IMG/VR virus record: IMGVR_UViG_3300022777_000060
Strand: one strand, 5' to 3'
Length of the DNA: 64,000 nucleotides
Origin: a virus
The notes under the pieces were generated by a model. It was not told the origin of the DNA, did not search any database, and was given only the letters and a program-made list of their open reading frames with translations. Shown in pieces: positions 9,548-28,371 of this stretch; position 1 is the stretch's first letter, and every line of letters starts with the position of its first letter. A program made the translations under genes and the position numbers.

Positions 9548-9574
9548 AAGTTTTTGTTGGTTTTATGATCCTGC

Positions 9575-10278
9575 GCTTCCCAAAAGGAAGCCGATTACAA
9601 GTGATCTTGGTAGTATCTCTGTCTATACATATAACAAACGCATCAGCAACAAAGATTACAGCTATGATATACGGATTAGTGAATAAAGATGGTGGTCAAA
9701 TCCGTTATGTCGGACGGACTTCTCTTTCTGAAAGCAAAAGGAAATCCCTTCATGCACATAGGGCGAAGAAAAACATAGATGAATCTCCAAAAGGCCAATG
9801 GATCCGAAGGGTTGGATTAGATGGGTTTGATATTATTGTTCTTGAAGATGAAACAAAAGATGCTATTGAATCTGAAAAGTTCTGGATTCAGTATTTAGAG
9901 TTTTTAGGATCTGATTTGCTGAATGTCACTGAAGGTGGGAACGGAAATACAAAGGGGGGAGGTATTGAAATAACCGAAAAAATGGAGAGTATGATGGGCA
10001 AAGTTCCTGATCAGAAAATAGCTAACGAGTTTGGTATCGACAGAAAAACTGTCCAAAAACACAGAACTCGCATCGGAATAAGTCCAGTTCAACCCAATAA
10101 CCTAAGTAGCAAAAAAGTATCTCAAGTAAAATGGATGCTCGAAAATACAAACAAGAGCCAAAGAGAGATAGCTAACTCATGTGACGTCGGACAAGCAAGT
10201 GTTTCTCGTATCAACAGAAAAGAAACATATTCCGATGTCACGGGTCAACTATGAAGAGCTTCCCAAAAGGAAGCCGAT
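9575..10278 (+). repeat. 21-bp direct repeat GCTTCCCAAAAGGAAGCCGAT at 9575-9595 and 10258-10278 flanking the endonuclease
   Basis: Read directly from the sequence. Confidence 0.95.
9664..10254 (+). mobile_element. Free-standing GIY-YIG homing endonuclease with C-terminal HTH, antisense to its neighbours
   Basis: MIYGLVNK...RYVGRT, AIESEKFWI; C-terminal SQREIANSCDVGQASVSRI; AT-rich and K-rich relative to flanks. Confidence 0.85.
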
Positions 10279-10659
10279 CACCAAAGACCCCCCTGCCCAT
10301 ATATACTTTTTGATTTGTTCCCAAGTCTTGCCACGTTCCAGTCGATTGATTCGGTCATCTCTCATATCGATTCGCTCTTGCTTGATTTCAAGCCGTTTTT
10401 CGGTCAAGTCAAGAATCAATGAGTCTTGACGTGCTCGCCGCTCCCAAAGATCGATCTGGTGAGCTTGCTCTTCAATTAGCGAGTCTTGAAGCGCAATCTT
10501 CCGCTTCTGTTCGGTGAACTGTTCTTTGAGTTCACGCAATGATTCAACAGACACGGTAACGCTGTCTTTCTCAGGCGGCGGCGTGTCGGGAACTTCTTGC
10601 GCCAACGCTGGCGTCGCCGTGAAGGCAAAAACCAAAAATGCGAAGACAAACCGTTTCAT
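10249..10659 (-). CDS. Signal peptide + coiled coil + C-terminal TM protein, putative spanin-like lysis component
   Basis: MKRFVFAFLVFAFTATPALA signal, heptad-rich middle, C-terminal IWAGGSLVIGFLLG. Confidence 0.55.
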   Translation of the reverse strand: MKRFVFAFLVFAFTATPALAQEVPDTPPPEKDSVTVSVESLRELKEQFTEQKRKIALQDSLIEEQAHQIDLWERRARQDSLILDLTEKRLEIKQERIDMRDDRINRLERGKTWEQIKKYIWAGGSLVIGFLLGSSS

Positions 10660-10663
10660 GTGT

Positions 10664-11050
10664 CTACTTTTTGTTGTCACCGAATCCTTCAACCCAATCC
10701 TTCAAATCCTCCGCGGAGTCGTCCGGCTCTGGAACGTCCTCTTCAACGTCATCGATATCATCACGTATTTCGTCTGCACGCTCTTTGGAGTCGTCGATCT
10801 CCTCGTCGGTTTTGTCGCGGTCGTCTTTGACCTCTTCCTTCTTCTTTTTGGCTTCGTCGCTTTCTTTCTTCAGGTCTTTGTCGGCGTCTTTCCAAGCGTC
10901 AGTCCAACTCTCAGAGCGACCGAAGACGAAGTAAAGTGCAGCAAGAACAGCGGCACCTGCGGCGATGGCGTACTTCTTTCCTCCGAAGTAGTAAGCCAGA
11001 GCAACCACACCGACTCCTGCCAAAACGTAAAGGAGGACTTCGAGATTCAT
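10664..11050 (-). CDS. N-terminal double-hydrophobic + charged coiled-coil protein, putative inner spanin-like
   Basis: Two hydrophobic segments followed by a D/E/K-rich helix. Confidence 0.5.
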   Translation of the reverse strand: MNLEVLLYVLAGVGVVALAYYFGGKKYAIAAGAAVLAALYFVFGRSESWTDAWKDADKDLKKESDEAKKKKEEVKDDRDKTDEEIDDSKERADEIRDDIDDVEEDVPEPDDSAEDLKDWVEGFGDNKK

Positions 11051-11053
11051 GGA

Positions 11054-11479
11054 TTACGAGATGTTTTGAAGAACCGTTCGGACTGCTTGACGCACTTGTT
11101 CCTCTTGCTTGAGAAAGTCAGGCACCTTGCTGTCACTGGCATAGTGATCAGCAGAGAACGTGTCCTTGATTTTCGAGGTCGGAATGTCGTCCGCAGTATC
11201 AGTTTCTTCGTCGTAGTGTTGTCCGACGAGATCAAAGAACTCTTCACGACCCTCATCTGTAAGGTCTTGCGGGTCATCAATGTTGAGCGTTTCCATCACG
11301 CCCTGAACGAACTCTTGGTAGTCGTCACCGTCCTCGCTAATAATGTCGCGAATCGCCTCACGAACAACGGATCGAACCTTGTCGTCGGAAACGGTCTTCT
11401 CAGAGCGAAGTGCTTTGCGCACGCCACTTCGAACCGCCTCTTGAATCTTGCTATCGTTATTGTTGCAGTTGCAGCTCAT
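11054..11479 (-). CDS. Hypothetical protein with repeated VRxxVRxAI motifs
   Basis: AVRSGVRKAL, KVRSVVREAIRDIISE, QVRQAVRTVL. Confidence 0.7.
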   Translation of the reverse strand: MSCNCNNNDSKIQEAVRSGVRKALRSEKTVSDDKVRSVVREAIRDIISEDGDDYQEFVQGVMETLNIDDPQDLTDEGREEFFDLVGQHYDEETDTADDIPTSKIKDTFSADHYASDSKVPDFLKQEEQVRQAVRTVLQNIS

Positions 11480-11510
11480 AGGTATTAGTTAGTTTGAGTT
11501 TTGTTCACCT

Positions 11511-12176
11511 TTATATATCCTCTCGATTTTCTCCTTCGACTTCTACGTAAAATACGTATCCTGCGAGCAGGCTGGCTTTCGCTATGAGGTATTGGCGCTC
11601 CTGCTCTGTCATTTCTCGCTCTTTTGCCGTGTAATCGACGCCGAGCATTCCAATAAGCACCCCGTCGATATTCCGCATCGCGAAAAGATGCATTTGCTCA
11701 GTCCCCCGCTGGCGAAACAGAAGTTCCACTTCGGGATCCACGTTCATTTGTCCCCCACTGTACGTGATATAGTCCTCTTTGATCAGATTTCCAATCATTT
11801 CCGAAAAGAATGAAACGAGCACGTCAGAAAACCTGTGCTGTTCTTTCGAGACGCCCGGAGCAGTGATTTCATGAGTCACTGATATTTTCTTCATCGAAGC
11901 GTCACGCACAGAGTTCAGAAACTTTCCGCCGTTGTGAAACTGCGCAATCCAACATCGATCAGCGCCAAGCTCTTCTCGAACCTCTTCAAGCTCGGCAGAG
12001 ATATTTTGCGCAAACTCAACTTCTTCGTCGAGAGTCCTTCGCTGTTCTCCGGAATCATCTACGGTTTCATCTTCGCTGCTATATCTCTCTTTTAGCCACC
12101 ATATAAAGAAAGGACCAAGAACTCCAGTGATTATAGCCGCTACAACACGTGTAATGGCAAAGATGCCTTCGAACAT
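11511..12176 (-). CDS. Putative holin, T4 gpT-like architecture (N-terminal TM + GAF-like domain)
   Basis: One N-terminal TM, then LEEVREELGADRCWIAQFHNGG...LIGMLGVDY, a GAF-like pattern. Confidence 0.55.
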   Translation of the reverse strand: MFEGIFAITRVVAAIITGVLGPFFIWWLKERYSSEDETVDDSGEQRRTLDEEVEFAQNISAELEEVREELGADRCWIAQFHNGGKFLNSVRDASMKKISVTHEITAPGVSKEQHRFSDVLVSFFSEMIGNLIKEDYITYSGGQMNVDPEVELLFRQRGTEQMHLFAMRNIDGVLIGMLGVDYTAKEREMTEQERQYLIAKASLLAGYVFYVEVEGENREDI

Positions 12177-12178
12177 TG

Positions 12179-12868
12179 CTATTCCTGCTCATCGGATTTT
12201 GTTGATTCATTTTCGAGCTGTTGAACCTTTTGTTCAAGCTCTTGAATGTGGTCTTCAAAGTTTTCGATGAACTCTTGGGCGTTATCCATCATCTCTCCCA
12301 TTTCGTCGTCATTGAGCCCTTCCCACTCAACAGTGTCGCCAGAAGAGTTGACGACTTGTTTGAAGCTCCCCTGCATCTTCTCTTCAAACTCTTCGAGCCC
12401 TTCTTTGATGTCCCGAAGCCAGCTCTTTTTGTTTTCAAGCATCGTTCGCTTCTCGTAAAGCTCATACGTGCCATTGACACGCATTTCTGTTTCCTTCTTT
12501 TGCCAGCAGTCAAAGCACATGTCCCGCAGGCGCCAAAACTTGACGTCGAACTTGCCGTTCATGATTTTCTCACAGTTCGGACAGAACATCGGCGTCCGAA
12601 TGCTGTCGAACATGGAAACTTTGATCGGGCCTCCAGATCCCATTTCCCAAACTTGCTCGCCATCCGGTCCCCACCATTGATCGCCCTCTTCGGCGCCAAC
12701 TGGCCGGTGTTCGTAAATCCCGTCTTCGTCTTTCTCTGGATCTTCGTACGCCTCACCCCCATCTTCATAACTGGTTGGAACATGAACCGTTTTGGGGATT
12801 TCAGGAGTCCCCCCCTGCATAATCGTTTCGAGTGCTTCGTTTTGGCTTTCTTCGTCTGTACTAAACAT
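12179..12868 (-). CDS. Conserved hypothetical protein with CxxC...CxxC
   Basis: FCPNCEKIM...MCFDCW. Confidence 0.75.
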   Translation of the reverse strand: MFSTDEESQNEALETIMQGGTPEIPKTVHVPTSYEDGGEAYEDPEKDEDGIYEHRPVGAEEGDQWWGPDGEQVWEMGSGGPIKVSMFDSIRTPMFCPNCEKIMNGKFDVKFWRLRDMCFDCWQKKETEMRVNGTYELYEKRTMLENKKSWLRDIKEGLEEFEEKMQGSFKQVVNSSGDTVEWEGLNDDEMGEMMDNAQEFIENFEDHIQELEQKVQQLENESTKSDEQE

Positions 12869-12905
12869 AACTGGTTTGGATTTTATTCAGAAGCGTCGAT
12901 TCACC

Positions 12906-12913
12906 TATAAGTA
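12906..12913 (-). promoter_or_regulatory. Putative late promoter TACTTATA
   Basis: Upstream of the 12868 start. Confidence 0.6.
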
Positions 12914-12937
12914 TCACACTATCTTCCATACTTCATG

Positions 12938-13852
12938 CTAGTATCCGCTGCTTGAGACAACTTGCTCTTTCAGGTCGTCAAGTCCATATTCTTCGATATA
13001 TTTGTCAAATGTTGGACGGCTCACCTCTTCATAGTTGTCGCGAGCATATCTCCGTGCTGCAGCGACTGTGTTAGAGTTTTCAAGGGACTCGCGAACCTGT
13101 CCTTTTGTAAGCTTTCTGCCTTTCTCTTTCCATCGCTTTTTTTGCGCCTTGGAAAGTTTTTTACACTGCTTCTTTCTATACTCCGGATCTTGCCAGTTTT
13201 CTTTTTGTTTCTGCGATAAACGTTCACGAAGTTCTGGATCTTTCATTTTTTCGGCGTGATCAGATTTTCTTATACCTTCGGAGATTTTCTTTCTCGTTTC
13301 TTCACTTCTTGTTTTGCCAGTATGCTGCTCTTTCGCGTTCATAGCAAACTTTTTGCGAAGTCTTTTTGCTTTCTGTTCTCCGTGTATTTCTTCAAAGGAT
13401 TTTCCGGAGCAAGGCGCTCCGTTTTCCTCATATCTCTTTCTTCTATTCTTTTTTATTTCTTTAGCCTTTTCCTCCCCATATATCTCTTCCCACGTGCTGC
13501 CGGATCGGATTTTCTTATTCACACGAGCGGCTTCTGGATTGTAGCCACCGTCTCCACCTTCACATATGTTCGTAAGATTTTCAAGCGTGTGCTCCGCGAT
13601 TAGGTCTTTCTCTTTCTCGAACGCCTTTTCGCTCTCTTCATACTCGTAGGGCTTTTCGTATTCAAGGTCGTCATACCCACTTTCGAGTATCGACTTGATT
13701 TTGTTGTATCGGTGCGGGTTTTTGTTTTTGTAGCTTTGTTTTTTGTTTTTTACGTGTTGAACGTGCTGCTTCATTCTGCCGTTCGTTCCTTTTCCTATGT
13801 AGAACGTTTCACCACTTCGAGGATCAATAAGCTTATATACGTAGTGTTTCAT
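12938..13852 (-). mobile_element. Free-standing GIY-YIG homing endonuclease with NUMOD3-like repeats
   Basis: HYVYKLIDPRSGETFYIGKG, AFEKEKDLI, LTNICEGGDGG, HTGKTRSEETRKKISE. Confidence 0.9.
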
Positions 13853-13868
13853 GGCTCCAGTGTTTTTA

Positions 13869-13876
13869 TATAAATA
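13869..13876 (-). promoter_or_regulatory. Putative late promoter TATTTATA for the GIY-YIG gene
   Basis: Upstream of the 13852 start. Confidence 0.55.
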
Positions 13877-13896
13877 GTCTGGAGCCTTGTAACTTT

Positions 13897-15927
13897 TTAG
13901 CGGCCGTATTTTATTATGCCGATGATTTGATTCAGCGGAGCGAACTGGCCGGTGAGTTTGTAGGTTTTCCCGTCATACTGAAAGACGATCCCTTCAAGAG
14001 CGGCAAGCTCGTCCATTCCACCGGCCGCTTCGAGTCTTGACATTTGCTGCTGCAGTTTCTTTACAGAATCTTCATCGGCTGGACTGCCTTCAAGTTGAGC
14101 ACGCACGCTTTCGATTTGGTCTCGAATGTCCTCTCGCGCTTCGTCGGGACTGGTGGCAACGACCGTTTCAACTCGCTTGAGAACTTCAGTGCCAAGGCGA
14201 AGGAACACTTCTTCAAGCGGCCGCATGTTCTCTTTGAACTGGTCGCGGTAATCGTTCTTATCGAACTCACGTGCCCACGACTTGAAGTCCTCGTGGTCCA
14301 CTTCGGATTTGAAGGTGCGAAGTCCGTATCCGTCCTCTCCAGACTTGTTGCCCCATGCCCAACGCTTGATAAGTCCGGCGACAACATGCTCTGGGATGTC
14401 ATAGTCGAAGTCGTCTGCCTTTTCTCGAATGAACTCCTCCCACCACTCTTCGTGCCAATCCATCACCTTGTTGTCGTTGCTCATGCCGTATTCTGCCATA
14501 TAATCCTCAACCTCTCCAATCAGCTCGTCTCTCAAGTCTTCAAGCTGGATGTTCGGAAGCTCAACTTCCGGTGGGGAGAGGATTTCGAATTCCTCTTGAA
14601 CCTTCTGGTCGACTTCTTGCACAAGGTCAGCGAGCCGGTAGGCGGCGTCTTTCTTGAAGTCAATGGCGTTTCCGGACTTGTCGTGCTCGATTACTCCGTG
14701 AAATACGATGAACGAGTCTCCATAGTCCACGATGTTCTTTGAAGCAGGATAGATGATTTCAAGGCTCATCCACTTGCGCCCCTCTTCAAACACCTCTTCA
14801 AGCCGTTCGTCGCGAACATCACTTAGAGCAATGGACAGATCACGAAATGCATACTCAAATGCCTCTCGAACGGCTCCTCGCCCTTCAAACTTATCAACGA
14901 GATCCCGAAGGTCCATTGCGCCTTCCCCGAAGTTTTTCAGGTGGCCTTTGTTGCGAGCGGCGACGAGATCACCGTCCTTCCAGCTGATCATGAGGTTCTG
15001 CCCGTCAACCTTTTCGATGGGCTGCTCTTCAATGTCAAGGTTTCCGTCGAACGCAAGATTGACCATGTTTTTGAGGTCGCCAAAGGTCAGCTCCAGGTCC
15101 TCAAACGGGTGATCCATATGTCCGAATGATCCTCCTGCCTGAAGCAGTTTTCGGCCGTCATCAGACTTCACGACATCTTTTATAAATTGTTCTTTGCTTT
15201 TGCTATTATCCGGCCCCTTCGACTCGTTTATATGATGAGGGATCAACCGAAGATTCGAATGATGTGATACGACTTTTGGCCGAATGTTATTCAAAAAAGC
15301 AGATTGGATACTGTATTCGTGATCAACATGATGACCATTTCGACCTCTCTTCTCTAAGTCAAACTTCTCTTTATTTTCGCGAAGACTTTTTTCAGTATAT
15401 CTTTTTACTTTTTCTTTATACTGTTTGAAGTCATCTTTGTCTTCTGGTCGAACCCATGCTCCGTTCTGATACTGTTTCTTCCTATACTCTTCGGAATATG
15501 ATGCCTGTCCAACTGTTTCAGCTCTTAGCTCGCGAAGTTCCGGATTGTTCTCATATGATTGTTTTACACTTTCACTTATTTTTTCTCTAACTTCGTTTTT
15601 CTTAGCTGGATTACTCTTCCCCCTTATCTCTTTTCTAACTCTCCCTGTCAGTGATTCGGATACCTTTTTCCTATGTTTCTTTTCGTTCATCGGGTTATTT
15701 TCAGATACCTTTTTCCGATTCTCTTTGTTATGCATAGGATTGTTTTCGCTCATCTTTTGACGAGCTTCTTCCGACACAAGGTTAGCATTTGGATATTTCT
15801 TTTTATATTCATCCATTGTCATGTTATGCTTACACTCCAAATGACGATACTGGATTTGGCTAAACTCTCCCCCACATTCTTCACAGATTACCATATCAGT
15901 TTTTTTATTATGTCCTTCATTCAACAA
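13897..15927 (-). CDS. HNH-like/NUMOD endonuclease domain fused in frame to a ligase-like nucleotidyltransferase domain; the frame stays open upstream to 16077
   Basis: N-terminal CEEC..HLECKH, NPM repeats, HHVDH..HHSNLRLI...NESK; C-terminal GGSFGHMDHPF, EKVDGQN (KxDG-like), EGIVF..YKLTG. Confidence 0.75.
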   Translation of the reverse strand: MLNEGHNKKTDMVICEECGGEFSQIQYRHLECKHNMTMDEYKKKYPNANLVSEEARQKMSENNPMHNKENRKKVSENNPMNEKKHRKKVSESLTGRVRKEIRGKSNPAKKNEVREKISESVKQSYENNPELRELRAETVGQASYSEEYRKKQYQNGAWVRPEDKDDFKQYKEKVKRYTEKSLRENKEKFDLEKRGRNGHHVDHEYSIQSAFLNNIRPKVVSHHSNLRLIPHHINESKGPDNSKSKEQFIKDVVKSDDGRKLLQAGGSFGHMDHPFEDLELTFGDLKNMVNLAFDGNLDIEEQPIEKVDGQNLMISWKDGDLVAARNKGHLKNFGEGAMDLRDLVDKFEGRGAVREAFEYAFRDLSIALSDVRDERLEEVFEEGRKWMSLEIIYPASKNIVDYGDSFIVFHGVIEHDKSGNAIDFKKDAAYRLADLVQEVDQKVQEEFEILSPPEVELPNIQLEDLRDELIGEVEDYMAEYGMSNDNKVMDWHEEWWEEFIREKADDFDYDIPEHVVAGLIKRWAWGNKSGEDGYGLRTFKSEVDHEDFKSWAREFDKNDYRDQFKENMRPLEEVFLRLGTEVLKRVETVVATSPDEAREDIRDQIESVRAQLEGSPADEDSVKKLQQQMSRLEAAGGMDELAALEGIVFQYDGKTYKLTGQFAPLNQIIGIIKYGR

Positions 15928-16077
15928 GTCTTTTTTTACTGACTCAATGATTTCGTTGACCGTATCAACGTCATTTGGATCTTCAACTTCGCCGTCGTCG
16001 ACTCCCGCCTTATCTTCAGGGTCTTCGCCTTCAAGCTCTTCGTCGTCGGCACGCTCTTCGCCGTCGCCGGATTCGTC

Positions 16078-17568
16078 TTAAAGTCCTTCAGCTTCATCTT
16101 CGACGTCCTGTGCGGTTTTTGGTTCACCGAGTGCAAGCGCAATGTTTTCGTCGGCGTCGTGATACATGCTGCGGATATGCTCAGTGTCCATCGTTCCCAT
16201 GTAGCTCAAAAGCTCATATCCTGCAGCTTCTGCCACGGCGTTCGCGAACGGTTCGTAGCTGGCAACTGGATCTTCGGTTCCCGCTTTCGGCCCAATGCCT
16301 GTCGGGAAGAACGAGTCAAACGGCAATCCGTCAGTCTTGAAGTCATCATCAACTCGATCTGTGATATAATCAAGCACCTCGTATCCGAAAAGTCGGCTGA
16401 GTTCATCTGCAGTCTCTTGAAAGTCCTCAAGATCCGAGTACCAAGTCACCGGCCCGTCGTCTACGGGTGAACCGGTCTTTGCAGTTGAAAGCTCGTTCAA
16501 GGCACGCTTGCGCTTCATGCGCCGTTTCGTTCGGTCGAGTCCTCCCCAATCAACAAACTCTTGAATGAGGTTTCCGGGCACGTAGCGAGCTTCAGTGAGC
16601 CTCTTCAGCATGAGGTCATAAATCTCTTGATTGAACGATCCGTAGATGTACTTGAAGAAGTCCTTCTTCTCTTGCTCTGGAATAGACTCGCTGCGAAATG
16701 CCTCTCGCACACGACTTCCGCTGATTTCATCGCCGCGAAAAGTGAATCCGGCCATTGGTGTCGTGTATACGTAGCCGCCGTCTTCGTAGCCTTCAATCTC
16801 TCCCTCTGGTGGGTATTCATCAAAGTAGCTGGAGCCAAGAAGCCGCCCTTTGTCTTTTTCGCTTACTGCCGCCACATACGCAGTCGACTCCGGATCATAG
16901 TCCTCAAGGATCTCTTTTGGCCCATATGGGTTTTTGACCTGAACGACATTTTCGTGCGGCACGTCAAAAAGCGTGGTGATGATTTTCTTCTTCTGCCGAA
17001 ACGTAAATGGGCTGCGTGGAGGATCGACTTTGTTGGAGGTGCCAATGTATACTTCGTTTCGCCCGAAGCGATCTTTCAGGTGGTTGTACACCTTATAGTG
17101 GCCGCGGTGGAACGGTTGGAAACGTCCAGAGAACACCGCCACAATGTTCATATCTTCTTTTTGCTCATTGATTTGCTTCTGGACGTCGTTGAGCATCCCC
17201 ATCGCTTCGGTTGTCGGAAGGTGAATCCGAAACACAGGCGCCTTGTGGTCTTCGCCCTTCACTTCACCGATTGCTCGTGTCTGGTGGCGGCCGTCAATAA
17301 TGTCGTAGTCTTTGGAAACAACAACCGGCTGAACTTCTCCTGTATCTTGAATCTGTTCGGCCTTTTCCTCAACTACGTCCTTATCGAGCCCTTCAGTCTC
17401 AACAACTGTAAGCTCATTTGTTGGAACTCGCTCGACCGTATACAGAACCCCACGGTCATCCAGAAGTTCCTGCAAAGTAGAAAGGTGGTCGGGCTCGAAC
17501 TGCGGCTTTCCTTGGTTTTCGCGAAGAAGCCGAACCGCCAAGTTTTTACTGAGTTTGTCAATGCTCAT
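16078..17568 (-). CDS. ParB/Srx-like domain + HxGH cytidylyltransferase-family nucleotidyltransferase
   Basis: QPVVVSKDYDIIDGRHQ (ParB-like); AVFSGRFQPFHRGH and ISGSRVR (CTP_transf-like). Confidence 0.8.
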   Translation of the reverse strand: MSIDKLSKNLAVRLLRENQGKPQFEPDHLSTLQELLDDRGVLYTVERVPTNELTVVETEGLDKDVVEEKAEQIQDTGEVQPVVVSKDYDIIDGRHQTRAIGEVKGEDHKAPVFRIHLPTTEAMGMLNDVQKQINEQKEDMNIVAVFSGRFQPFHRGHYKVYNHLKDRFGRNEVYIGTSNKVDPPRSPFTFRQKKKIITTLFDVPHENVVQVKNPYGPKEILEDYDPESTAYVAAVSEKDKGRLLGSSYFDEYPPEGEIEGYEDGGYVYTTPMAGFTFRGDEISGSRVREAFRSESIPEQEKKDFFKYIYGSFNQEIYDLMLKRLTEARYVPGNLIQEFVDWGGLDRTKRRMKRKRALNELSTAKTGSPVDDGPVTWYSDLEDFQETADELSRLFGYEVLDYITDRVDDDFKTDGLPFDSFFPTGIGPKAGTEDPVASYEPFANAVAEAAGYELLSYMGTMDTEHIRSMYHDADENIALALGEPKTAQDVEDEAEGL

Positions 17569-17607
17569 ATCTTTGAAGTTGTGTATCCGGATCCGTCTTT
17601 ACATATA

Positions 17608-17640
17608 AAAAGGGCAACGCCCTACGCGGGCGCCACCCTT
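17608..17640 (-). terminator. Intrinsic terminator
   Basis: AAGGGTGGCGCCC/GGGCGTTGCCCTT + TT. Confidence 0.7.
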
Positions 17641-17668
17641 ATATACGCCGAAGCCGTTGGTTTCGTTC

Positions 17669-18121: not shown

Positions 18122-18136
18122 ATTGTTGTTTTGTTT

Positions 18137-21100: not shown

Positions 21101-21406
21101 ATTGTTTTCCAGACAGTCGTGGTTCCCCGGCGTGAGAATCGTTGGACAGATTTCGCCGAGAGTAGACAAAAACTCCGTGACCATATCCACAAGCTCAGGG
21201 CTCATGTCGGCCTTGGAATGAACCACGTCTCCCGCAATGACAATGAGGGAGTTTTCGGTTCGGCGCTCTTTGATTTCGCGATAGAGCTGAGAGAAAATTT
21301 GCCGGTACTCGTCGTGACGCTTGTAGTTGCGAATGTGAACGTCAGCGACGTGGAAAATCTTGTCGACGCTTTCGACGCCGATAGGTAGCTCTGTAATTTG
21401 GGCCAT
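18137..21406 (-). CDS. Fused SbcD/Mre11 nuclease - SbcC/Rad50 ATPase (T4 gp47+gp46-like)
   Basis: ADVHI, GDVVH, PGNHD, GDIH, GSLIQQN; Walker A ENATGKSS, CEYC hook, signature GSGME, Walker B IDEGFGNLD. Confidence 0.92.
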   Translation of the reverse strand: MAQITELPIGVESVDKIFHVADVHIRNYKRHDEYRQIFSQLYREIKERRTENSLIVIAGDVVHSKADMSPELVDMVTEFLSTLGEICPTILTPGNHDCLENNPDRLDALTPIIQAMDRPNVHYVFETGLYRVGDVVFSHMNFMDDADEYVRAKEIPDEYRKVAIFHDVVDRAVTDYGYQLKSDEVDEHMFVGFEAALLGDIHRRQRISEARMEKTRISRDEAEEYVGGGWNLDTYENGVALLKRRWPEAWFTGSLIQQNHGEDVGHGFLVWDLEGDVEEPEYVELENEYGFYTLQVEGASLPVRPDIPEKPRLRLKVKNTSGAEVRRITDDVRDLYNIQQLSVMRVEDDDGTFDSGKEASAIGDLTSTSYQNDLITDYVKRNFPATDEVITEIREINEELNKQLDDDDLVNNIKWRPKKFEFSNMFSYGENNVINFEKMGGLVGLFSENATGKSSILDALCFCLFDKSTRAYKTDQILNHNSDWFECKLTFEIEGTTYVIHRKGEKERERIPVDVNFYRVHEDGTRENLNGEQRYDTNANIREYVGEFDDFILTALSVQNNNTLFIEKSQSERKDVLARFMGLNVFDELYSEAKDKSKHIESLLDEHSKSDLQDKIEHCKEKRQEKKSRRDNIESKKSDLEDRKADLMSEIMDLNKKMSDIEDIDLDIDHLKSRYVELREEIEDTEDQIEQKEIRKRELEQAIGGLDSFLEQFNGEQLENRYEKQQQLETQIDDIETKLKYKRKDLEEAKEEREHLSHREFDPDCEYCVERNKQDARKLEEVEEEIDDLTEEINGLKSKLEEARQQRNPKIEERWSEYKTKRDNKRKQEQKLSSVKIEHSNLKSKVRDKRDGVDDIENKIQKYNDAKDRIEKNKRLEKKADELNDKLSAVKDEISGLESELRDVHSDIRVLNREQKQAEENLSKVEGLSTKYQAYEYYLEAVKRDGVPYELISRFIPQIEQHINSILSQVVDFGVVLEVDGKNINAYIVYDEENMWALELGSGMEKFVSSLAIRAALIDISNLPRPNFLAIDEGFGNLDSENMSSVYQLFEYLKTNFDFIMVISHIDVMRDTVDDLMEIESGDYSSVMY

Positions 21407-21478
21407 ATTGGATGTAACTGTTTTCGTTCATCCATAAATAGGCCCAACCCTACCCTTTGGCCGTGAAGTAAGCGTAAA

Positions 21479-22444
21479 TCACGTCCACAGCTTGTGTGAA
21501 ATGAGGTCGCCGTGGCCAAGCGGTTCTGCCTGCTTGATTCGCTCGGTCATCCCTTCAAACCCGAGGTCGCCGGGGTCTTTCCCTTCAGGAAGCTCAATCA
21601 GCTTCACGGTGAAGTCTTCCCCCAAGAACCGTTCTGCGATTTCCAGAGCAACCGACTTCATATCCGCGTCTAGAGCGACGCGAATCTCTTCTGTATCGGC
21701 TTCTATGAGCCGACACGCAAGGCTCTCAGGCAAGTTGTTTCCAAGCAAGGGGACTGCGTTTCGGCGGCACGCGATAGCGTCAAACGGCCCCTCCACGAGC
21801 GTCACCGGCTCTCGCCAGTTGACCATTGACCCGAACGGCACGATCGAATCTCTTGGCGCCGATGGGTTTTTGTATTTCAGAAACTGGCTTGACCATATGG
21901 CCCGGCCGACGAAATAGTTGAGGCCGCCGCTTCGATCGTAACTCGGGATGATGATTCGCTTTTCGTAGTCACCGGATCGGCAGTACCCGATTTCGTGCTT
22001 CACGACGTCGCCGTAGCTCAAGCCTCTGTCTTTGAGCCGATTGACTGCGTGGCGGTACACGACGTCGGACTGGTCTTTCCAGAGCGGTTTGTACTCTTCC
22101 GGAAGCGACACGGAAGGCGTCTGGTCTTCGCCCTCGTCCTCTTTCGTGTAATCCTTTTTGCCGCCACTTGGGCTATCGACATACTTTTCGAGCCGCTTGA
22201 AAAGCCGCTTCGGAGCATTCGTTTTCTTGAGCAGCGTAAACAGCGACTTGCCGCTCTCGCCGCAAACCCAACACTGCCACCATCCATGTTTGTCACTATC
22301 AGCGTCAAAGTTGATCCAGAGTTTCTTTTTACTTTCCGGATGATTACAAAACGGACAACTAAGCCCGTAATCACCTTGATGACCTTGCCGTTTTGCTTCA
22401 CTATCAACGGCTTTTTCTATTATGCTTATAACTTCTTCGTTCAT
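21479..22444 (-). CDS. DNA primase (Zn finger + TOPRIM)
   Basis: CPFCNH...WQCWVCG, RIIIPSY, KYKN, LVEGPFDA, VALDAD, KDPGD. Confidence 0.88.
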   Translation of the reverse strand: MNEEVISIIEKAVDSEAKRQGHQGDYGLSCPFCNHPESKKKLWINFDADSDKHGWWQCWVCGESGKSLFTLLKKTNAPKRLFKRLEKYVDSPSGGKKDYTKEDEGEDQTPSVSLPEEYKPLWKDQSDVVYRHAVNRLKDRGLSYGDVVKHEIGYCRSGDYEKRIIIPSYDRSGGLNYFVGRAIWSSQFLKYKNPSAPRDSIVPFGSMVNWREPVTLVEGPFDAIACRRNAVPLLGNNLPESLACRLIEADTEEIRVALDADMKSVALEIAERFLGEDFTVKLIELPEGKDPGDLGFEGMTERIKQAEPLGHGDLISHKLWT

Positions 22445-24030
22445 TATTGATTAGCGTATACGGATTTTTCGGAAGTTTTTGGCTCTGTATTTATGTTGGT
22501 AGTTCCATTTTTTCTTCGCCGGACCGTTACAATCTTCCAACTGTTCGGGTCATTCATGTCTTCGTAACAAATGTAATACCTGTGGTCTGATCCTCTTTTT
22601 TGAGACCCTGATCCGATTCCATGAAGATAGTTCTTTTCAACATACTTCAATGAAAGCACACCATTTTTTTTGAGTCCGTTATCCTCAACAAACTCTCCGT
22701 TTTGAATTTTCGACTTCCAATCGTTGGACTTTGGTTTTCGGGCGTTTTTCCAAAACCCGTGCTTTTGCATGTAGTTTTTGAAGTCAGACCAATTCGCCCA
22801 TGTGTTTTTTTCAACCGGAGGGTTGATTACCACTTGAGTACCTGTTCGTCCCGAAAGGTCTCTGGTAACATCACTTGGGTTTCTTTTGTTAGCGGCGACT
22901 TCGACTGCCTGCTTGTCTCCGTATACTTTATACGGACTAGACTTCCAATTGTTCAACCGAAGAATCGATTGAATTGAAGTCGAAATTGGAGTAGAGTTTC
23001 CCGGACTGTCGTAAATTCCGAAAAAAGTTTCTTTCCTGTTGATGTCCGTGGATCTCTTAATCGTGGAGTGAACTACGTACAGAATTTTCCCGTCGATCCA
23101 CTCGTTTTCCTCATTGAATTCATCTCCACTTTCCCAATCCACGTCATCCAGTTCAGCAGGAAATTTTACTGTTTCGACACCGAATTGTTTTGCCCAATGT
23201 TCGAAGTAATGACGATTATTGAGTATGAGATTTCGGGTGTTTGTTTTCTCACCACAACCATCATTTACCTTGCGGTTCGCACGAAGAACTGCTCGCTTAG
23301 AGTCGCTTCCTCCAAACTCTCTCATGAAGTTTTGAAATCCGTTTGAAAACTCAAGCGGATTTTTGGATGAGCTTCTGTCCAACCAACAACATTCACGATT
23401 AACGTTTACGCAGTTTCCATCGTCAAGAAGGTTTTTGGCGCCGTAAAAGTCGGTGCCTTTCAAGTAAGGCATTACGTCGACGTGACGTACATTATTAAGT
23501 CCAGCAAAGTCGATTTCGAACGGCGTTGCAGACGTGTAGATTATTTGGATATTCCGATGTCCGTGACAAAGGTTAATAACACTTTCTAACTTTTGACCGA
23601 CACCAGATCCGAAATCTAGCTCATCGACGTGAACAATTACCTTCTTGTTTTTTTCCATAGCTACGTTTAGAGCATTTTTTATTGCGGCTCTCGCCTTTTC
23701 AAGACTGTTGTCTTTTCTGGTAATTTTGAATGCTCCACGAGCACCGGCGGTTATGAACTCATTCATTTGCGGATTGATTGACCGCCGATTCAAAGAAGTA
23801 ATGTAAATGTGAGGATGCTGATTATACTTCTTTATTGTCCGAAGGGTCAAAATCCTCTTGCCAGAGTTTGGTTCTCCGGTGACACGGATCGACGTGTCTT
23901 TCGAAGATTCAAGCAGAGGGTCTGCTTCTTTTCTGAAACAGTTGTCTTGCTCAGGGTAAGAATTCGTCAGTTCACGAAGGGTTGCTTTTGCTTGATTGTC
24001 AAGCTTGTATACTTCTTCTGGAGGTAGCAT
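22444..24030 (-). CDS. Divergent SF2 helicase-like ATPase
   Basis: YPEQ, GEPNSGKR, VHVDELDFGS, YTSATP, TSIQSILR; low GC and basic composition. Confidence 0.65.
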   Translation of the reverse strand: MLPPEEVYKLDNQAKATLRELTNSYPEQDNCFRKEADPLLESSKDTSIRVTGEPNSGKRILTLRTIKKYNQHPHIYITSLNRRSINPQMNEFITAGARGAFKITRKDNSLEKARAAIKNALNVAMEKNKKVIVHVDELDFGSGVGQKLESVINLCHGHRNIQIIYTSATPFEIDFAGLNNVRHVDVMPYLKGTDFYGAKNLLDDGNCVNVNRECCWLDRSSSKNPLEFSNGFQNFMREFGGSDSKRAVLRANRKVNDGCGEKTNTRNLILNNRHYFEHWAKQFGVETVKFPAELDDVDWESGDEFNEENEWIDGKILYVVHSTIKRSTDINRKETFFGIYDSPGNSTPISTSIQSILRLNNWKSSPYKVYGDKQAVEVAANKRNPSDVTRDLSGRTGTQVVINPPVEKNTWANWSDFKNYMQKHGFWKNARKPKSNDWKSKIQNGEFVEDNGLKKNGVLSLKYVEKNYLHGIGSGSQKRGSDHRYYICYEDMNDPNSWKIVTVRRRKNGTTNINTEPKTSEKSVYANQ

Positions 24031-24119
24031 AATTCTAGTGATTGTACGTAAGAGAGATAATTAAAATGAAGCAAAGAATGGGGGGATCACCGCCCCCCCC
24101 CACCTTGCTTCTTTGGCTT

Positions 24120-25766
24120 CTAGCCGTTGTTCAGCATCCTTTCGTATTCACTACTGAGAAGCTGCTTGTGAGTCATCAAAACGACTTGATAGCCCTGCAC
24201 ATTTTCGTTGATGTAATCCCTCGTCTTCTTCGCTCCACGGGTACTGGAACTTCCGACAAGAATAACCCGGTTAACGTCAATGTGGCTACCGGAGTCCTCA
24301 AACATTTGAGCGTACATCAGCGCCGTGTCCACGTGATCGGCTTTCACGTTTGACGACTTCACTTCAATCACCGTTCCTTCGTCGTTAATTTTGGCGAGAA
24401 TGTCGCCTTCACGACTGTTTACCACTGGACTTCGTTCAATCTCTTGAACGTTACCAAGGTGGCAGCCGTCACGAAGCCAGGCTTCCACAACGTCTTCTGC
24501 GGTTTGTCCACTTCGCTGAGTGTACACGAAGTACTCGGGGTCGATCGGATCTTCATCATCCGTTCCTTCTTCAATCCGCTCTTGGATTGCGTCGAAGAGC
24601 CGCTTGAACCGCTTATCTTCCTGAATACCTTCCTTGATGGTCTGAACTTCAATCCCGTCGTGGAAGATGATCTCACCTGTGCAAAGGTTGTATCCAGAGT
24701 TGGGCTGCTTGTCAAGCACTTCCATTTCAAAGAGCTTGTTCAACCCGACTCCTCGGCCTTCGTACACGTGGTCAAACCCCTGGTGAGTAATACCTGCACC
24801 ACCGACGCCTGCTTTCGTGTACGGGTGATAGTGCTTGTCGTACCACGGATTGCTGATAATCGATCCGCTGTTATCGGTTTGAACGGCGTCTTCGTATGCA
24901 TCTTCATCCGGAGCATATCCGATACGCACGGTTGCCTTAATGTCACCGGATTCGACTACGAACGTTTCTGAGAAGTCGCCATCAGGTCGCGGCTCCTCAT
25001 TGTCGTAGTCATACATTGGCGGCCAGGCGGCTTCAAGATCCTTGCTGAAAGCCTCTTCACCGTCAAAGTTGAGAGTCAGGTTCGAGTTTAGCTTGACATC
25101 TGACCACCGCGTTCCGTCAAGAGCGTGAGCATAAATCGCTTCGAGCTTGCCCAAAATGTGCTTCCACGCACTTTTCGCGCCTTGAAAGCTATCGTACCAA
25201 AACTTCTCGGTGAGGTTGTCGATAACGATCATCGTTCCGTGGTCAGCGCCGAACGGATGTTCCCATCCATTTGGACTCGGAAAGACCCGAATATCGAAGT
25301 TTTGCTGCCACTCGCCTCTAACCATGTATGGATACTTCTCGTACTTGGGCTGCGTGACGATGCTGTGGAAGTCACCGATGTTGTGTCCTGCGCCCTTCAA
25401 GCCAAAACCGTACTTGTTGTTTCGGCCTGAAGTCATTTCGCTCGGATTCGTCATTCCAAGAGCATCGTTAATGCCTCGCTGGTTCTCGCCGGGATTTCGA
25501 CGAATGCCAGCGGCATTGTCAATGATATGAATCGAAGAGTTCTCTGGATTATTCGGGTCAATGTTCACCACAATGTTCACTCGAACTTCTTGCATCGAAT
25601 CTTCGATGGCTGAAGAAATCGAGTTGTCCATCAGCTCCCTCGCTGCGCCTTCGGGGCCGTAAGGCATCCCTTCGTAAATGCGGCGCATGTTGCGGTCATC
25701 AATGTTGATTTGCCGTTGTTCTACTTTGAAATTTTCTGAGTTTGGAATGTTAAGGTTGCCACTCAT
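24120..25766 (-). CDS. GHKL (MORC/MutL-like) ATPase with C-terminal PD-(D/E)XK nuclease
   Basis: ARELMDNS, IIDNAAGI, NKYGFGLKGA, HGTMIVI; C-terminal EGDILAK...VIEVKS..TALMY. Confidence 0.8.
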   Translation of the reverse strand: MSGNLNIPNSENFKVEQRQINIDDRNMRRIYEGMPYGPEGAARELMDNSISSAIEDSMQEVRVNIVVNIDPNNPENSSIHIIDNAAGIRRNPGENQRGINDALGMTNPSEMTSGRNNKYGFGLKGAGHNIGDFHSIVTQPKYEKYPYMVRGEWQQNFDIRVFPSPNGWEHPFGADHGTMIVIDNLTEKFWYDSFQGAKSAWKHILGKLEAIYAHALDGTRWSDVKLNSNLTLNFDGEEAFSKDLEAAWPPMYDYDNEEPRPDGDFSETFVVESGDIKATVRIGYAPDEDAYEDAVQTDNSGSIISNPWYDKHYHPYTKAGVGGAGITHQGFDHVYEGRGVGLNKLFEMEVLDKQPNSGYNLCTGEIIFHDGIEVQTIKEGIQEDKRFKRLFDAIQERIEEGTDDEDPIDPEYFVYTQRSGQTAEDVVEAWLRDGCHLGNVQEIERSPVVNSREGDILAKINDEGTVIEVKSSNVKADHVDTALMYAQMFEDSGSHIDVNRVILVGSSSTRGAKKTRDYINENVQGYQVVLMTHKQLLSSEYERMLNNG

Positions 25767-25975
25767 AAGAATGTAAAGGTTCTGTTGTTAAGGGTAATAG
25801 TAAAGATCGAAAGAAACCGGATCGCGATTTCGCGAGAGCGTGATTTCTCTTTCGATAATGCATCCCTTTATACGGCAAGGGGGGGCCTTTGTTTCGAGAA
25901 CCCCCCCTTCAATTGCGAAGTTCATCGTTTTTGGACATTCAAAAAAATTTCACATGAACTTGGGTAAAAAAATAC

Positions 25976-26218
25976 TTACAAAGCGTTCCACTCGTACACG
26001 TGCTGGCCGTCGTCAAACCGTTCGGTGTCGGGATCGACAACAACCTCTTTCTGGTCTTCGCTGCTTCGGGCTTCGATGTACGCAGACCCGACTCGATAGT
26101 TCATTGACATTGCGCCTCGTGGTTTGTTGTCGTCAATGAAGAAGTATCGAAGTTGGCAAGAGTTGTGGGCGATGTAACTTCTTTCGTGCTTGAGAAAGAG
26201 AGGCTTCGGATTCGCCAT
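25976..26218 (-). CDS. Small paralog 1 (LFLKHERSY family)
   Basis: Likely ATG 26218; shared motif with next two ORFs. Confidence 0.6.
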   Translation of the reverse strand: MANPKPLFLKHERSYIAHNSCQLRYFFIDDNKPRGAMSMNYRVGSAYIEARSSEDQKEVVVDPDTERFDDGQHVYEWNAL

Positions 26219-26421
26219 TCGTATCTGTGTTTGTGACCGAAGGCTGTTTTTTTCGATTTGTCCCAATCGATAAGCGTCGGAGAGTGCGGCATTGACATTT
26301 CAATCACGACGCACACTTCATCCGGAACGTGCTTCGCCGGGCCGACGTTGTGCCGATCGTCAACTTTCACGGCCGGACGCTTGTTAATATAACGCCTCTC
26401 GTGCTCGAAAATCAACTTCAT
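26101..26421 (-). CDS. Small paralog 2 (LIFEHERRY family)
   Basis: ORF track; tail overlaps paralog 1. Confidence 0.55.
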   Translation of the reverse strand: MKLIFEHERRYINKRPAVKVDDRHNVGPAKHVPDEVCVVIEMSMPHSPTLIDWDKSKKTAFGHKHRYEWRIRSLSFSSTKEVTSPTTLANFDTSSLTTTNHEAQCQ

Positions 26422-26609
26422 CGGTAGTCAAAATGCCATTTGTCGAGACCTTCATCCGGCTTGACGAGCGCGTTTTTTGACCGCACTTTCGAGAAGGAAA
26501 ACGTGAGCGGAACTTCGCTTGCTCGTCGCGTTTGTACATGGAAGTCCAACCGAACCTGATCTCCCCGCCGAAACATGTAGCGGACTTCGTGCTTGAGAAA
26601 TAGGTTCAT
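26418..26609 (-). CDS. Small paralog 3 (LFLKHEVRY family)
   Basis: ATG 26609 in ATGA overlap. Confidence 0.6.
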   Translation of the reverse strand: MNLFLKHEVRYMFRRGDQVRLDFHVQTRRASEVPLTFSFSKVRSKNALVKPDEGLDKWHFDYR

Positions 26610-26800
26610 GGCCGTTCTGACGGGTCTCGAAGCTCCCAGTTCTGAGCGCCCCAAAGAAACTTGCCGTCTAAGTGCTCTCTGCGCAGCTCTGCGGGGCTGA
26701 ACCAAAGATTACGGTATGGGGAGTAAAAGTGAAGTCCTTCCCTCTCTGCCTTCCAAAAGAGCGGCTCAAGCTCCGCTGCAATGTCGTGTCGATCGGCCAT
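26606..26800 (-). CDS. Small hypothetical protein
   Basis: 64 aa; TAATG-coupled to the stranded ruvC 3' remnant. Confidence 0.7.
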   Translation of the reverse strand: MADRHDIAAELEPLFWKAEREGLHFYSPYRNLWFSPAELRREHLDGKFLWGAQNWELRDPSERP

Positions 26801-26862
26801 TATGATTTGACAAAACTTCGTGCGAGCACAATCGAGTCTGCGGCGTCGTCGCTGCTGTTCAT
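26800..26862 (-). pseudogene. Stranded duplicate of the ruvC-like gene 3' end (MNSSDDAADSIVLARSFVKS*)
   Basis: Manual translation; matches GSDDAADALVLARSYVKSDEE* of 27820..28371. Confidence 0.85.
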
Positions 26863-27671
26863 TCTGGTTTTCTTGTTTCTGTAACGTGTTGCCAGTTTAT
26901 ACCTCTGCTTATTACCGATATATTAGCTGGAGAAGTGTTGTATTTTTTGGCTATTTCTTTTTGTAGCATATCGGTGTTGTTTAGAGGCCACTTTATCTCT
27001 TTTACTTCGTCGTTTTTGAGATCAGCGTTATACTGATCTTCTCCTTTTTGACCGATTTTTTCTTTCGTTTCTTCGGAGTGTGTTCTTCCTCTTGATCTTT
27101 CGGCTTGCTTTTCTCTTTCTTTTGGGTCTTGAAACCGTTTTTTAGTAGCCTCTCCTAGTTTAGATTTCCACTCTTCTGAAAACTCTCTTGATTTTCCATA
27201 CATCGGGTTTCCTTCTCCCGACATTCTTTCACTGTGCTCTTTTTTCCATTCGTCTGATAGAAGCTGTCCTTGTTCCACCAACTTCTTCATTTTTTCACTT
27301 TGGCGCTTCTTAAACTCTTCGCTATGAGTTTCGCCGTAAAACGGATTATCTTCGCCAGTATAAGTTGGCGGTTCGCTTCCATCTTTTGTCATATTCGTTA
27401 GATTTTCAAGTCCGATTCCGTCTATGATTTCAGTTTCAATCTTCAAGGCTTTTTCTTCATCAACGTCTTTTACTATCTTTCTGGCATAAGGTTTAATCCC
27501 ATTTCTTTTCAGTTTCTTTATTTTCCTGTTTTTGTGTTCATTTTCGGGATTATCAGAGTTTAGCTTGCTTTCCCATAAGTGTGATATGTGCCTATACCCT
27601 TTTCCTTTCCCAATATAAAAACATACCTCTTTTTCTTCATCTTCGTAAAATAGTCCATAAACGTAAGCCAT
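26859..27671 (-). mobile_element. Free-standing GIY-YIG homing endonuclease with NUMOD3 repeats and HTH
   Basis: AYVYGL...FYIGKGKG, LTNMTKDG, NPFYGETHSEE, NPMYGK, LQKEIAKKYNTSPANIS. Confidence 0.9.
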
Positions 27672-27702
27672 AAGTCCCACCTCTGGTCTTGCAGTTCAAT
27701 AG

Positions 27703-27750
27703 AAAAGCCGCTTGGCGCGGCGGTGGGACAGGCGTTACCAAGCGGCTTTT
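27703..27750 (-). terminator. Terminator-like hairpin in the leader of the GIY-YIG gene
   Basis: 13-bp inverted repeat AAAAGCCGCTTGG/CCAAGCGGCTTTT. Confidence 0.65.
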
Positions 27751-27819
27751 CAATCAAGTTTTTAGCGTCCCACCGCCAAGTTTATATATCCAGTGAGACG
27801 GCGATTTACCGTTGATTTT

Positions 27820-28371
27820 TTACTCTTCATCGGATTTTACATAAGACCTGGCCAATACCAAAGCGTCGGCCGCGTCATCGCTCCCAGGCCGTGGGTTGCC
27901 AGAACGGGTCATCTCCCACTCCACGTCGTCGTACATCTCTTCAATCTTCTCAAGCGGCCACGCCTTGCTGTCCTTATACGTGGACCACGGGCTCTCGTAA
28001 CTTCCGGGGACGCGCCCTCTGCCAAGCGCTTGCTTCTTCGCTGTGGACGGGTGAATCTTCTCCACACGCTCTTTGCCCATGCGTCGCTGCAGCTCGTATT
28101 CGATGATTCCGTTGAAGCGAAGCAACTTCGTTATTGTCGCCTTGCTGGAAAATCCACCGGCGTACTTCTTCAAGCTGTCTTCAAGAATCACTTTGTCGGC
28201 GTCAGCGATATGCGGCCAAACGTGTTCGTCCCACTGGTCGACCAAGTCGATTAGCTGATAGCCATCGGGCTTGTCGAACTTGTAAAAATCGTATGATTCG
28301 ATTTCTGCGTCCTCATTCATGAGGCAGTAGCCCGCGACAGATGTAGAAAGGTCAAGTCCTGCTATAACCAT
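27820..28371 (-). CDS. ruvC: RuvC-like Holliday junction resolvase
   Basis: IAGLDLST, VILED, LLRFNG, HPSTAKK, DDAADAL. Confidence 0.8.
   Translation of the reverse strand: MVIAGLDLSTSVAGYCLMNEDAEIESYDFYKFDKPDGYQLIDLVDQWDEHVWPHIADADKVILEDSLKKYAGGFSSKATITKLLRFNGIIEYELQRRMGKERVEKIHPSTAKKQALGRGRVPGSYESPWSTYKDSKAWPLEKIEEMYDDVEWEMTRSGNPRPGSDDAADALVLARSYVKSDEE

Follow-up and report, generated by a model that had tools for sequence, protein, structure and literature searches.

Candidate homing-endonuclease cassettes that carry replacement gene ends in a T4-like phage

The window analyzed here is a stretch of 64,000 nucleotides (nt) from the IMG/VR virus record IMGVR_UViG_3300022777_000060, a part of a large T4-like salt-lake phage, and it contains three GIY-YIG endonuclease genes, each lodged at the 3' end of another phage gene. 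These genes very probably belong to free-standing homing-endonuclease cassettes, composed of a foreign gene end, a spacer, and an endonuclease gene, that are inserted just inside gene ends and spread by break repair. At each site the upstream gene has an intact ("live") end, and a second copy of its terminal codons lies on the far side of the endonuclease gene as a stranded old end, or stump (Table 1). An earlier note, made from the window sequence alone, had reported such duplicates at the genes starting at 9664, 12938, and 26859, and all of its coordinates hold. Sequence comparison with relatives reveals, in addition to this anatomy, empty alleles, exact junctions, lineage-specific stumps, apparent co-conversion, and serial invasion of one site. 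This layout is known from fungal mitochondria; here it is repeated and very clean in a phage.

The comparison data are metagenome assemblies (ENA, Logan, and Joint Genome Institute [JGI] samples, several runs); below, L numbers denote relatives and X numbers denote runs. The relatives for site 3 are the contigs of 32 homologues of the RuvC-like protein, obtained by protein search and alignment. Two runs of one metagenome study contain DNA near-identical to the window, and X3, a run from a hypersaline lake, contains a relative with approximately 86-90% identity to it. The X3 coverage of the window leaves out positions 22442-27878, site 3 included, and run X4 gave next to no cover. Megablast of 23 kb against phage records returned no match, and viral contigs scanned with the RuvC-like protein yielded no relative.

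Table 1. Features of the nuclease insertion sites in the window; "stop" denotes the termination codon, and ORF denotes open reading frame
Feature	Coordinates	Strand	Description
Site 1 host gene	10249..10692	-	147-amino-acid membrane-anchored coiled-coil protein, live end ..SLVIGFLLGSSS-stop
Endonuclease 1	9664..10254	+	196-amino-acid GIY-YIG protein, helix-turn-helix repeats, GC content 0.39
Site 1 stranded old end	9563..9604	-	SLVIGFLLGSAGS-stop, readable ..(S)LVIGFLLGSAGS-stop
Site 2 live end	13897..13917	-	GIIKYGR-stop, end of ligase-like gene 13897-15927
Site 2 spacer	13853..13896	-	carried with endonuclease 2; 8-bp hairpin
Endonuclease 2	12938..13852	-	304-amino-acid GIY-YIG protein, GC content 0.42; PF22945 37 bits (cut-off 27)
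Site 2 stranded old end	12919..12936	-	MKYGR-stop, 1 nt past endonuclease 2 stop
Site 3 host gene	27820..28371	-	RuvC-like resolvase, 183 amino acids; PHROG 159 E 4e-12; 32 homologues
Site 3 live end	27820-27882	-	SDDAADALVLARSYVKSDEE-stop
Site 3 spacer	27681..27819	-	carried with endonuclease 3; structured, conserved in L014-L016
Endonuclease 3	26859..27680	-	GIY-YIG + NUMOD3, 270 amino acids from ATG at 27671, GC content 0.37
Site 3 stranded old end	26800..26862	-	SDDAADSIVLARSFVKS-stop, readable as 20-codon mini-ORF MNSSDDAADSIVLARSFVKS-stop
In-frame insert	15118..15917	-	~260 codons; Ros/MucR zinc finger, NUMOD3-like repeats, HNH-like motif
PD-(D/E)XK endonuclease gene	63535-63999+	-	PF11645 101 bits; runs off window
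tRNA-Arg	63470-63544	-	start overlapped by PD-(D/E)XK gene
Stranded second tRNA 3' half	~63436-63469	-	directly after tRNA-Arg; diverged, ~79% identical

At site 3, the stump of the RuvC-like gene is a 16-codon copy of the gene end, and the 15 codons that align with the live end comprise three identical codons, nine synonymous differences, and three amino-acid changes. The statement of the earlier note that the copies largely differ at synonymous positions fails for site 1, where the two copies are nearly identical and share 21 bases. Endonuclease 3 matches PF22945 with 55 bits (cut-off 27) and NUMOD3 with 52 bits. The mini-ORF formed by the stump is tightly packed between its neighbors: its ATG overlaps the endonuclease stop codon (ATGA), and its TAA overlaps the ATG of the next gene (TAATG). 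The spacer contains GATATATAAAC and three copies of GGTGGGAC/GTCCCACC, the last of them at the ribosome-binding site, as well as a terminator-like hairpin in which AAAGCCGCTTGG pairs with CCAAGCGGCTTT and which is interleaved with the three-copy repeat. Alternative pairings in this region could act as an on/off switch for translation.

Among the relatives, RuvC is followed directly by the next gene, with no endonuclease between them, in L001, L002, L003, L019, L020, and L023, and in five of these (L019, L020, L002, L003, and L023) it ends in the stump version. Homologues of endonuclease 3 occupy the same site in L014-L016 (78% identity) and in L017/L018 (61%); in both groups and in the window, the right junction lies no more than 1-3 nt from the endonuclease stop codon. 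At the DNA level, the stumps are close to the empty alleles (91% identity for L016 against L019, 96% for L017 against L020, and 87% for the window against L019), whereas the live ends match the same alleles at 67% in L016, 58% in L017, and 60% in the window. The expectation of the earlier note that relatives lacking the endonuclease would end with the stranded version was thus borne out at site 3 (87-96% for the stump against 58-67% for the live end), as it was by L006 at site 2 and by X3, L007, and L009 at site 1 (see below).

The inserted unit is delimited by the comparison of L017 with L020. The two flanks share 85-98% identity as far as the codon preceding S/T-D-D; beyond it the live copy is foreign, with the reading frame kept, and the stump, approximately 1 kb beyond the insertion codon, is resident sequence. 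Relative to L020, L017 has gained a foreign gene end of approximately 20 codons and the endonuclease gene, with a 129-nt spacer between them. Because the live copy turns foreign exactly at the first codon of the stump, the mobile unit is the gene end together with the spacer and the endonuclease. The earlier note had proposed that each element lands inside its target gene and carries a replacement end; the insertions indeed fall within coding sequence, 5-20 codons from its end, and the L017/L020 pair shows an exact correspondence.

In other pairs the foreign sequence extends further to the left. L014 and L019 are 93-100% identical until approximately 320 nt before the stop codon and 68-85% identical from there on; upstream of the insertion point, the foreign tract covers approximately 260 nt, and the right flank is 87-100% identical. 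In L024, compared with L023, approximately 240 nt of RuvC sequence are foreign and reach approximately 180 nt upstream of the insertion point. On the right side of the site 3 pairs, identity rises again to 83-100% as soon as the stump begins. Judged by these profiles, the left foreign tracts look like the co-conversion tracts expected of break repair; L017/L020 has almost no co-conversion. The "recoding" of the gene ends seen by the earlier note is simply divergence of the donor lineage and calls for no special process, as the live end is as diverged as other-lineage DNA (68-85% in the co-converted flank). The scars mark the insertion points. We infer that they may also predict the target (cut) sites, as the earlier note had it; since the co-conversion tracts span 240-320 nt, cleavage could occur well upstream of the scar.

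An example of repeated use of one site is provided by L024/L025. Here, RuvC is followed by a different ORF of 283 amino acids, by approximately 25 nt of a GIY-YIG gene tail, by the RuvC stump, and by a methyltransferase gene that is collinear with the empty L023. The ORF contains two helix-turn-helix units, a NUMOD3-like stretch, and a nuclease-like C-terminal domain. Two unrelated nuclease cassettes have used the same RuvC site, the second leaving the tail of the first behind. The ORF (L024:3052-3903) forms a family with L021:193-918, sharing helix-turn-helix and NUMOD3-like units and a C-terminal domain (..ELGYWVDGYD..E-x-D-E..H..) that matches no profile. This domain may be an undescribed nuclease domain, with homing-endonuclease-like behavior at the RuvC site.

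At site 2, homologues of endonuclease 2 (62-69% identity) are present at the same position in L009/L010, L011, and L012/L013, and X3 has endonuclease 2 too. The stump directly follows the endonuclease stop codon in each lineage and comprises 11 codons in L009/L010, 8 in L011, and 5 in both L012/L013 and the window. In the empty L006, the gene ends ..IMKYGR-stop like the stump, and the next gene begins 37 nt further on. The spacer (44-46 nt, conserved in four lineages) folds into a hairpin of -14.7 kcal/mol (z -4.2) that displays one compensatory change, GGCTCC/GGAGCC in two lineages and GGTTCC/GGAACC in two others. Its loop holds the T4-late-promoter-like TATAAAAA, and its 3' arm the ribosome-binding GGAG. 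The same layout, a late promoter within a hairpin that sequesters the ribosome-binding site, is described for T4 I-TevI and segB and for Aeh1 mobE (PMC2988022).

Site 1 differs in orientation: endonuclease 1 is the sole plus-strand gene in the region, and the genes of the other sites lie on the minus strand. The final two codons and the stop codon of the host gene overlap the endonuclease stop codon on the opposite strand, and the stump is separated by 15 nt from the ATG of the next gene. The duplicated part of the host gene (10 codons, 10258-10287) shares 21 identical bases with the stump, preceded by four synonymous differences; a 17-mer of this repeat occurs at these two places only, with 0 occurrences expected by chance. 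All four differences fall within the first 9 of the 30 bases, which suggests a recombination joint rather than an exact duplication followed by mutation. In X3, the contig joins 10292 to 9603, so that endonuclease 1 is absent and the gene runs straight into the stump, and the empty alleles of L007 and L009 have the stump-like end G-(G/S)-A-(S/G)-stop. Endonuclease 1 matches a PHROG "homing endonuclease" profile (E 2.6e-12); its score against the GIY-YIG profile PF01541 (17 bits) is below the cut-off, and its helix-turn-helix hits are weak. It has thousands of homologues among 1.8 billion representatives, none above 36% identity, and hence no second occupied lineage was found for this site. By this comparison the insertion is lineage-specific.

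A fourth insertion lies inside the ligase-like gene of site 2, between KKDLLNEG and RKLLQAGGSFGHM. This in-frame insert ends with a diverged copy of the resident LLNEGGGHGH (last 10 codons, 15118-15147, LLQAGGSFGH), and the resident remainder LLNEG-H (15910-15927) lies on its 5' side. The gene is continuous (945 amino acids) and free of the insert in L006, and in the window it is represented by two ORFs and the insert. X3, which also lacks the insert, skips 15117-15917 and has 19 other bases that encode GGGHGH; in L009 the insert stands in frame within a 1195-amino-acid ORF, with the same right-hand (cassette-side) copy. The insert is a mirror image of the GIY-YIG cases, built on the same plan at an internal linker. 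Of the earlier note's description of an HNH-like insert with a duplicated junction, the duplication (LLQAGGSFGH against LLNEGGGHGH) is confirmed, and the HNH family found no support in profile or structure searches. No HNH domain was detected in Pfam (E up to 1), PHROGs, or PDB sequence searches, a Ros/MucR zinc finger being the sole hit; the HNH label comes from a motif visible by eye, H-V-D-H .. N-L-x-L .. H-x-N-x-x-K, and from that motif alone. An AlphaFold model built from two sequences had a predicted local distance difference test (pLDDT) score of 48.6, too poor for a structure search. An intein was considered and rejected, as Pfam gave no Hint/intein domain and the junction residues are G/H and H/M.

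The same gene, which combines ParB, nucleotidyltransferase, and ligase-like parts, is split in the window by an in-frame TAA at 16078-16080, where three of the three covering runs, the likely source sample among them, have GAA (16080 C, not A). With GAA at this position, a single ORF of approximately 1223 codons including the HNH-like insert is obtained, to be compared with the 1195-amino-acid ORF of L009. Run X2, from the same study as the source, contains a variant contig in which 420 nt of the insert (15479-15900) are skipped, with CCT in between; this may be a copy of the insert that is decaying within the same population.

A fifth case, also pointed out by the earlier note, is present at 63436-63999, outside the range given there. 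A PD-(D/E)XK endonuclease gene is followed by tRNA-Arg and by the stranded half of a second tRNA; the 5' side lies beyond the window and only the 3' part is visible. The case appears to follow the same plan as the GIY-YIG sites, here at a tRNA gene. The PF11645 family includes I-Ssp6803I, which is encoded in a tRNA-fMet intron.

These observations can be combined in a model of cassette structure and spread. The cassette would sit 5-20 codons before the stop codon of a conserved phage gene, and not between genes. Its three components would be a 3' gene end copied from a different phage lineage, a short spacer with a regulatory function, and the endonuclease gene. Since the foreign end is joined in frame, the resident gene would stay whole, and the resident end, displaced behind the endonuclease, would survive as the stump. 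Spread would proceed by double-strand-break repair ("intronless homing"), set off when the enzyme cleaves an allele that lacks the endonuclease, close to the insertion point. On the left, the broken end would then copy the gene body of the donor, giving co-conversion tracts of 0 to approximately 320 nt, and the right broken end would pair with the donor stump and the downstream DNA, so that the recipient would keep its own lineage-specific end as the new stump. Such repair explains the lineage-specific stump at site 3, the fixed right junction, and the variable left tract. That the endonuclease itself drives mobility is supported indirectly, by the co-conversion tracts and by the shared junction in diverged lineages. 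The activity of the enzymes, their cut sites, the immunity, and the origin of the cassettes are inferred. Immunity would arise because the insertion splits the recognition site, of which the cassette restores one half in a diverged version; divergence of the carried end is a logical necessity, as an identical copy would recreate the target. As for the origin, an ordinary intergenic endonuclease downstream of the gene in one lineage probably entered a diverged genome through break repair in which one side was joined by homology and the other illegitimately, and such one-sided entry would create the duplication.

Several observations weigh against this model or narrow it. L005, with a RuvC that is 95% identical, has a live-type end and no endonuclease in the following 239 nt, and the live type is thus not exclusive to cassette carriers. 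The two types of RuvC end are allele classes that occur naturally, and L005 may belong to a donor lineage or reflect a conversion event without transfer of the endonuclease; its derivation from an occupied allele by deletion was rejected, since its end does not match a hybrid of the live and stump versions. In L014/L016, the live copy hardly differs from the stranded one over approximately 17 nt near the junction, and the same holds for 21 nt at site 1; immunity, if it is based on sequence difference, would therefore hang on few bases. The site 2 lineages are only 65-77% identical to one another and include no close pair with and without the endonuclease. The stumps at this site are more alike among lineages than the flanks are, so that here the stump may be mobilized along with the cassette and not be resident. 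Finally, the layout is not universal, as a GIY-YIG gene in the distant relative LR756508.1 is intergenic, with no stump of the upstream sheath-like gene.

An alternative, which we consider improbable, is that ordinary illegitimate recombination between diverged phages produced the duplications incidentally, as mosaic joints, and that the endonucleases are mere passengers at module boundaries. The region downstream of RuvC is indeed hypervariable among the relatives, nuclease genes are known at boundaries of genetic exchange (PMC10448857), and in L005 the live-type end is joined to unrelated downstream DNA without an endonuclease. However, a duplicate of the target abuts the nuclease ORF in all five nuclease insertions of the window. 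When 72 gene ends of the window were compared with their own downstream DNA, no comparable duplicate was found elsewhere, only site 3 standing out (score 66 against a median of 24), in a scan that is a weak control, being too insensitive for copies of 5-10 codons. Passengers would also not be expected to share the same right junction base, 1-3 nt from the stop codon, in three lineages with endonucleases only 61-78% identical, or to yield an insertion as clean as that of L017 relative to L020, with flanks otherwise collinear.

Still further from the data, and very improbable, is the interpretation of the repeats as target-site duplications left by a transposition-like or integrase-like insertion. 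The nearly exact repeat of 21 bases that directly flanks the insert at site 1 is what such an event would produce, but the clustering of its differences described above is unlike a mutated exact duplication. Moreover, repeat lengths vary from 15 to approximately 60 nt, the copies at sites 2 and 3 are approximately 60-70% identical and lineage-specific, the stump being resident and the live copy foreign, and the cassettes have no terminal inverted repeats, transposase, or integrase. We give least credence of all, and next to none, to assembly chimeras or to tandem gene duplication followed by decay. All data are metagenome assemblies, and the X3 contig breaks inside endonuclease 2; nevertheless, the same layouts recur in independent ENA, Logan, and JGI assemblies and in several runs. 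The stumps are closer to the functional ends of other genomes than to their own live end, a pattern that local duplication and decay cannot produce.

In phages, free-standing endonucleases are taught as intergenic elements. A review of T4 likewise places them between genes and makes no mention of duplicated gene ends (PMC2988022). The proposed cassettes share with T4 SegF, SegG, SegB, and MobE the enzyme families (Seg, GIY-YIG; Mob, HNH) and modular DNA-binding parts (NUMOD3, helix-turn-helix), as well as the targeting of a neighboring conserved gene, co-conversion of flanking markers, patchy distribution, and control by a late promoter and a hairpin (PMC2988022). The difference is that the T4 genes are intergenic and rely on polymorphism of the target, whereas the cassettes described here lie inside coding sequence and supply the missing end. 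For td intron homing in T4, the same review describes illegitimate double-strand-break repair with homology on one side and joints at microhomology (PMC2988022, citing Parker, Belisle and Belfort 1999). As summarized in the review, this is a tested entry route of the kind proposed above for the origin of the duplications, although in a laboratory construct with an intron.

The closest likeness in layout is with the "gene hybrids" formed by mobile ORFs (mORFs) in fungal mitochondria, such as atp6 of Allomyces macrogynus and atp6, atp9, cox2, and nad3 of Glomus (PMC3630166, citing Paquin et al. 1994). There, as here, a gene body is followed by an in-phase foreign C-terminal part, an endonuclease ORF, and the displaced native C-terminal part. 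The contrast in identity is also the same: the native part of the hybrids is 91-98% identical to a close relative and the inserted part 64-81% (PMC3630166), to be compared with 87-96% for the phage stump and 58-67% for the live end at site 3. The systems differ in the host, a T4-like phage and not an organelle, and in the endonuclease, which in the phage is a separate cistron under promoter-and-hairpin control, with one cassette antisense, and in fungi usually an in-phase fusion. The phage stumps are also much shorter (5-20 codons), and several sites occur per genome, one of them serially invaded. A full-text literature search retrieved the fungal precedent and no description of endonuclease cassettes carrying gene ends in phages, a result that is not proof of absence.

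Two further systems resemble the cassettes in part. Integrative elements at tRNA genes restore the 3' part of the target upon entry and leave the old 3' part behind. The PD-(D/E)XK gene, tRNA-Arg, and stranded half fit this pattern, in the window without integrase/att logic and without an intron. Genes split or interrupted by endonuclease genes include Aeh1 nrdA with mobE and T4 gene 39/60, with a mobA cassette and a bypass element. "Fractured genes" with split inteins are another example (PMC2677866). In those cases too, no intron is involved: the endonuclease gene lies within a coding region, and the element brings along a compensating feature that preserves host function. They yield two polypeptides or use split inteins, whereas the replacement end described here leaves a one-piece gene, and translation simply continues in frame through the HNH-like insert.

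In addition to the RuvC-like resolvase, the window encodes a primase, an SbcCD-like nuclease, the large subunit of the terminase, and 13 tRNAs; nearly all genes lie on the minus strand, and the relatives carry a T4-type portal. Against a GC content of approximately 0.51, the three GIY-YIG genes (0.37-0.42) form AT-rich islands. The endonuclease genes are intact in all lineages compared, and their distribution is patchy. A regular-expression search, which missed known GIY-YIG/HNH genes, proposed a further one at 50550-51296; it was rejected as a cell-wall hydrolase.

Other mobile or variable segments were observed along the way. The gene for the large terminase subunit of the window (7480-9111) has no intein; in that of L009 (9202-10948), precomputed Pfam hits indicate an intein that includes a LAGLIDADG endonuclease. 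TnpB/OrfB_IS605 (Cas12f-like) genes adjoin the endonuclease 2 stump region in L011 (1535-2821) and lie near RuvC in LR756508.1 (L001:2246-3463); they are a second class of mobile nuclease gene in these variable spots. The RuvC stump of the window is followed by three small paralogous genes (26101-26705) that start with M-x-L-(I/F)-(F/L)-(E/K)-H-E-x-(R/S)-Y, and L005 has a related one. The X3 contig departs from the window sequence at 22442, and the uncovered segment up to 27878 holds a GHKL ATPase, an AT-rich ATPase gene, small genes, and endonuclease 3; this module may be variable between relatives. X1 differs from the window also at 11545 and 21838 and by an extra C after 24092.

A broader proposal can be made only tentatively, and we would not put it at even odds: bringing along a gene end may be a third general strategy, besides introns and inteins, by which homing endonucleases reside in conserved phage coding sequence, with the stump kept as the right homology arm for the next homing event and, where the next gene was translationally coupled, as a mini-ORF preserving that coupling, and with the sites acting as hot spots for successive unrelated nucleases. 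An ATG overlapping the endonuclease stop codon is present in the window, in L014-L016, where the start of the next gene overlaps the stump stop codon, and in L024, where the next start is 7 nt further; L017 has no such overlap, and its next gene is far downstream. If the proposal is true, each invasion would exchange a gene end and up to approximately 300 nt of the gene, and essential phage genes would continually acquire mosaic structure in this way.

In summary, the cassettes would represent a new placement for phage endonucleases, inside coding ends and bringing a replacement end, and at one locus natural relatives represent an empty, an occupied, and a re-invaded state. The sites provide candidate homing sites and matched, putatively sensitive and resistant alleles for three to five uncharacterized enzymes. 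The cassettes would also account for abrupt switches at the 3' ends of conserved phage genes, such as those of the RuvC-like resolvase, the ligase-like gene, and the membrane protein. For annotation and phylogeny, they are a warning that gene termini beside nuclease genes may be foreign and that short "intergenic" stretches may be displaced gene ends. Finally, they establish a cross-kingdom parallel between phage cassettes and the mobile-ORF gene hybrids of fungal mitochondria.

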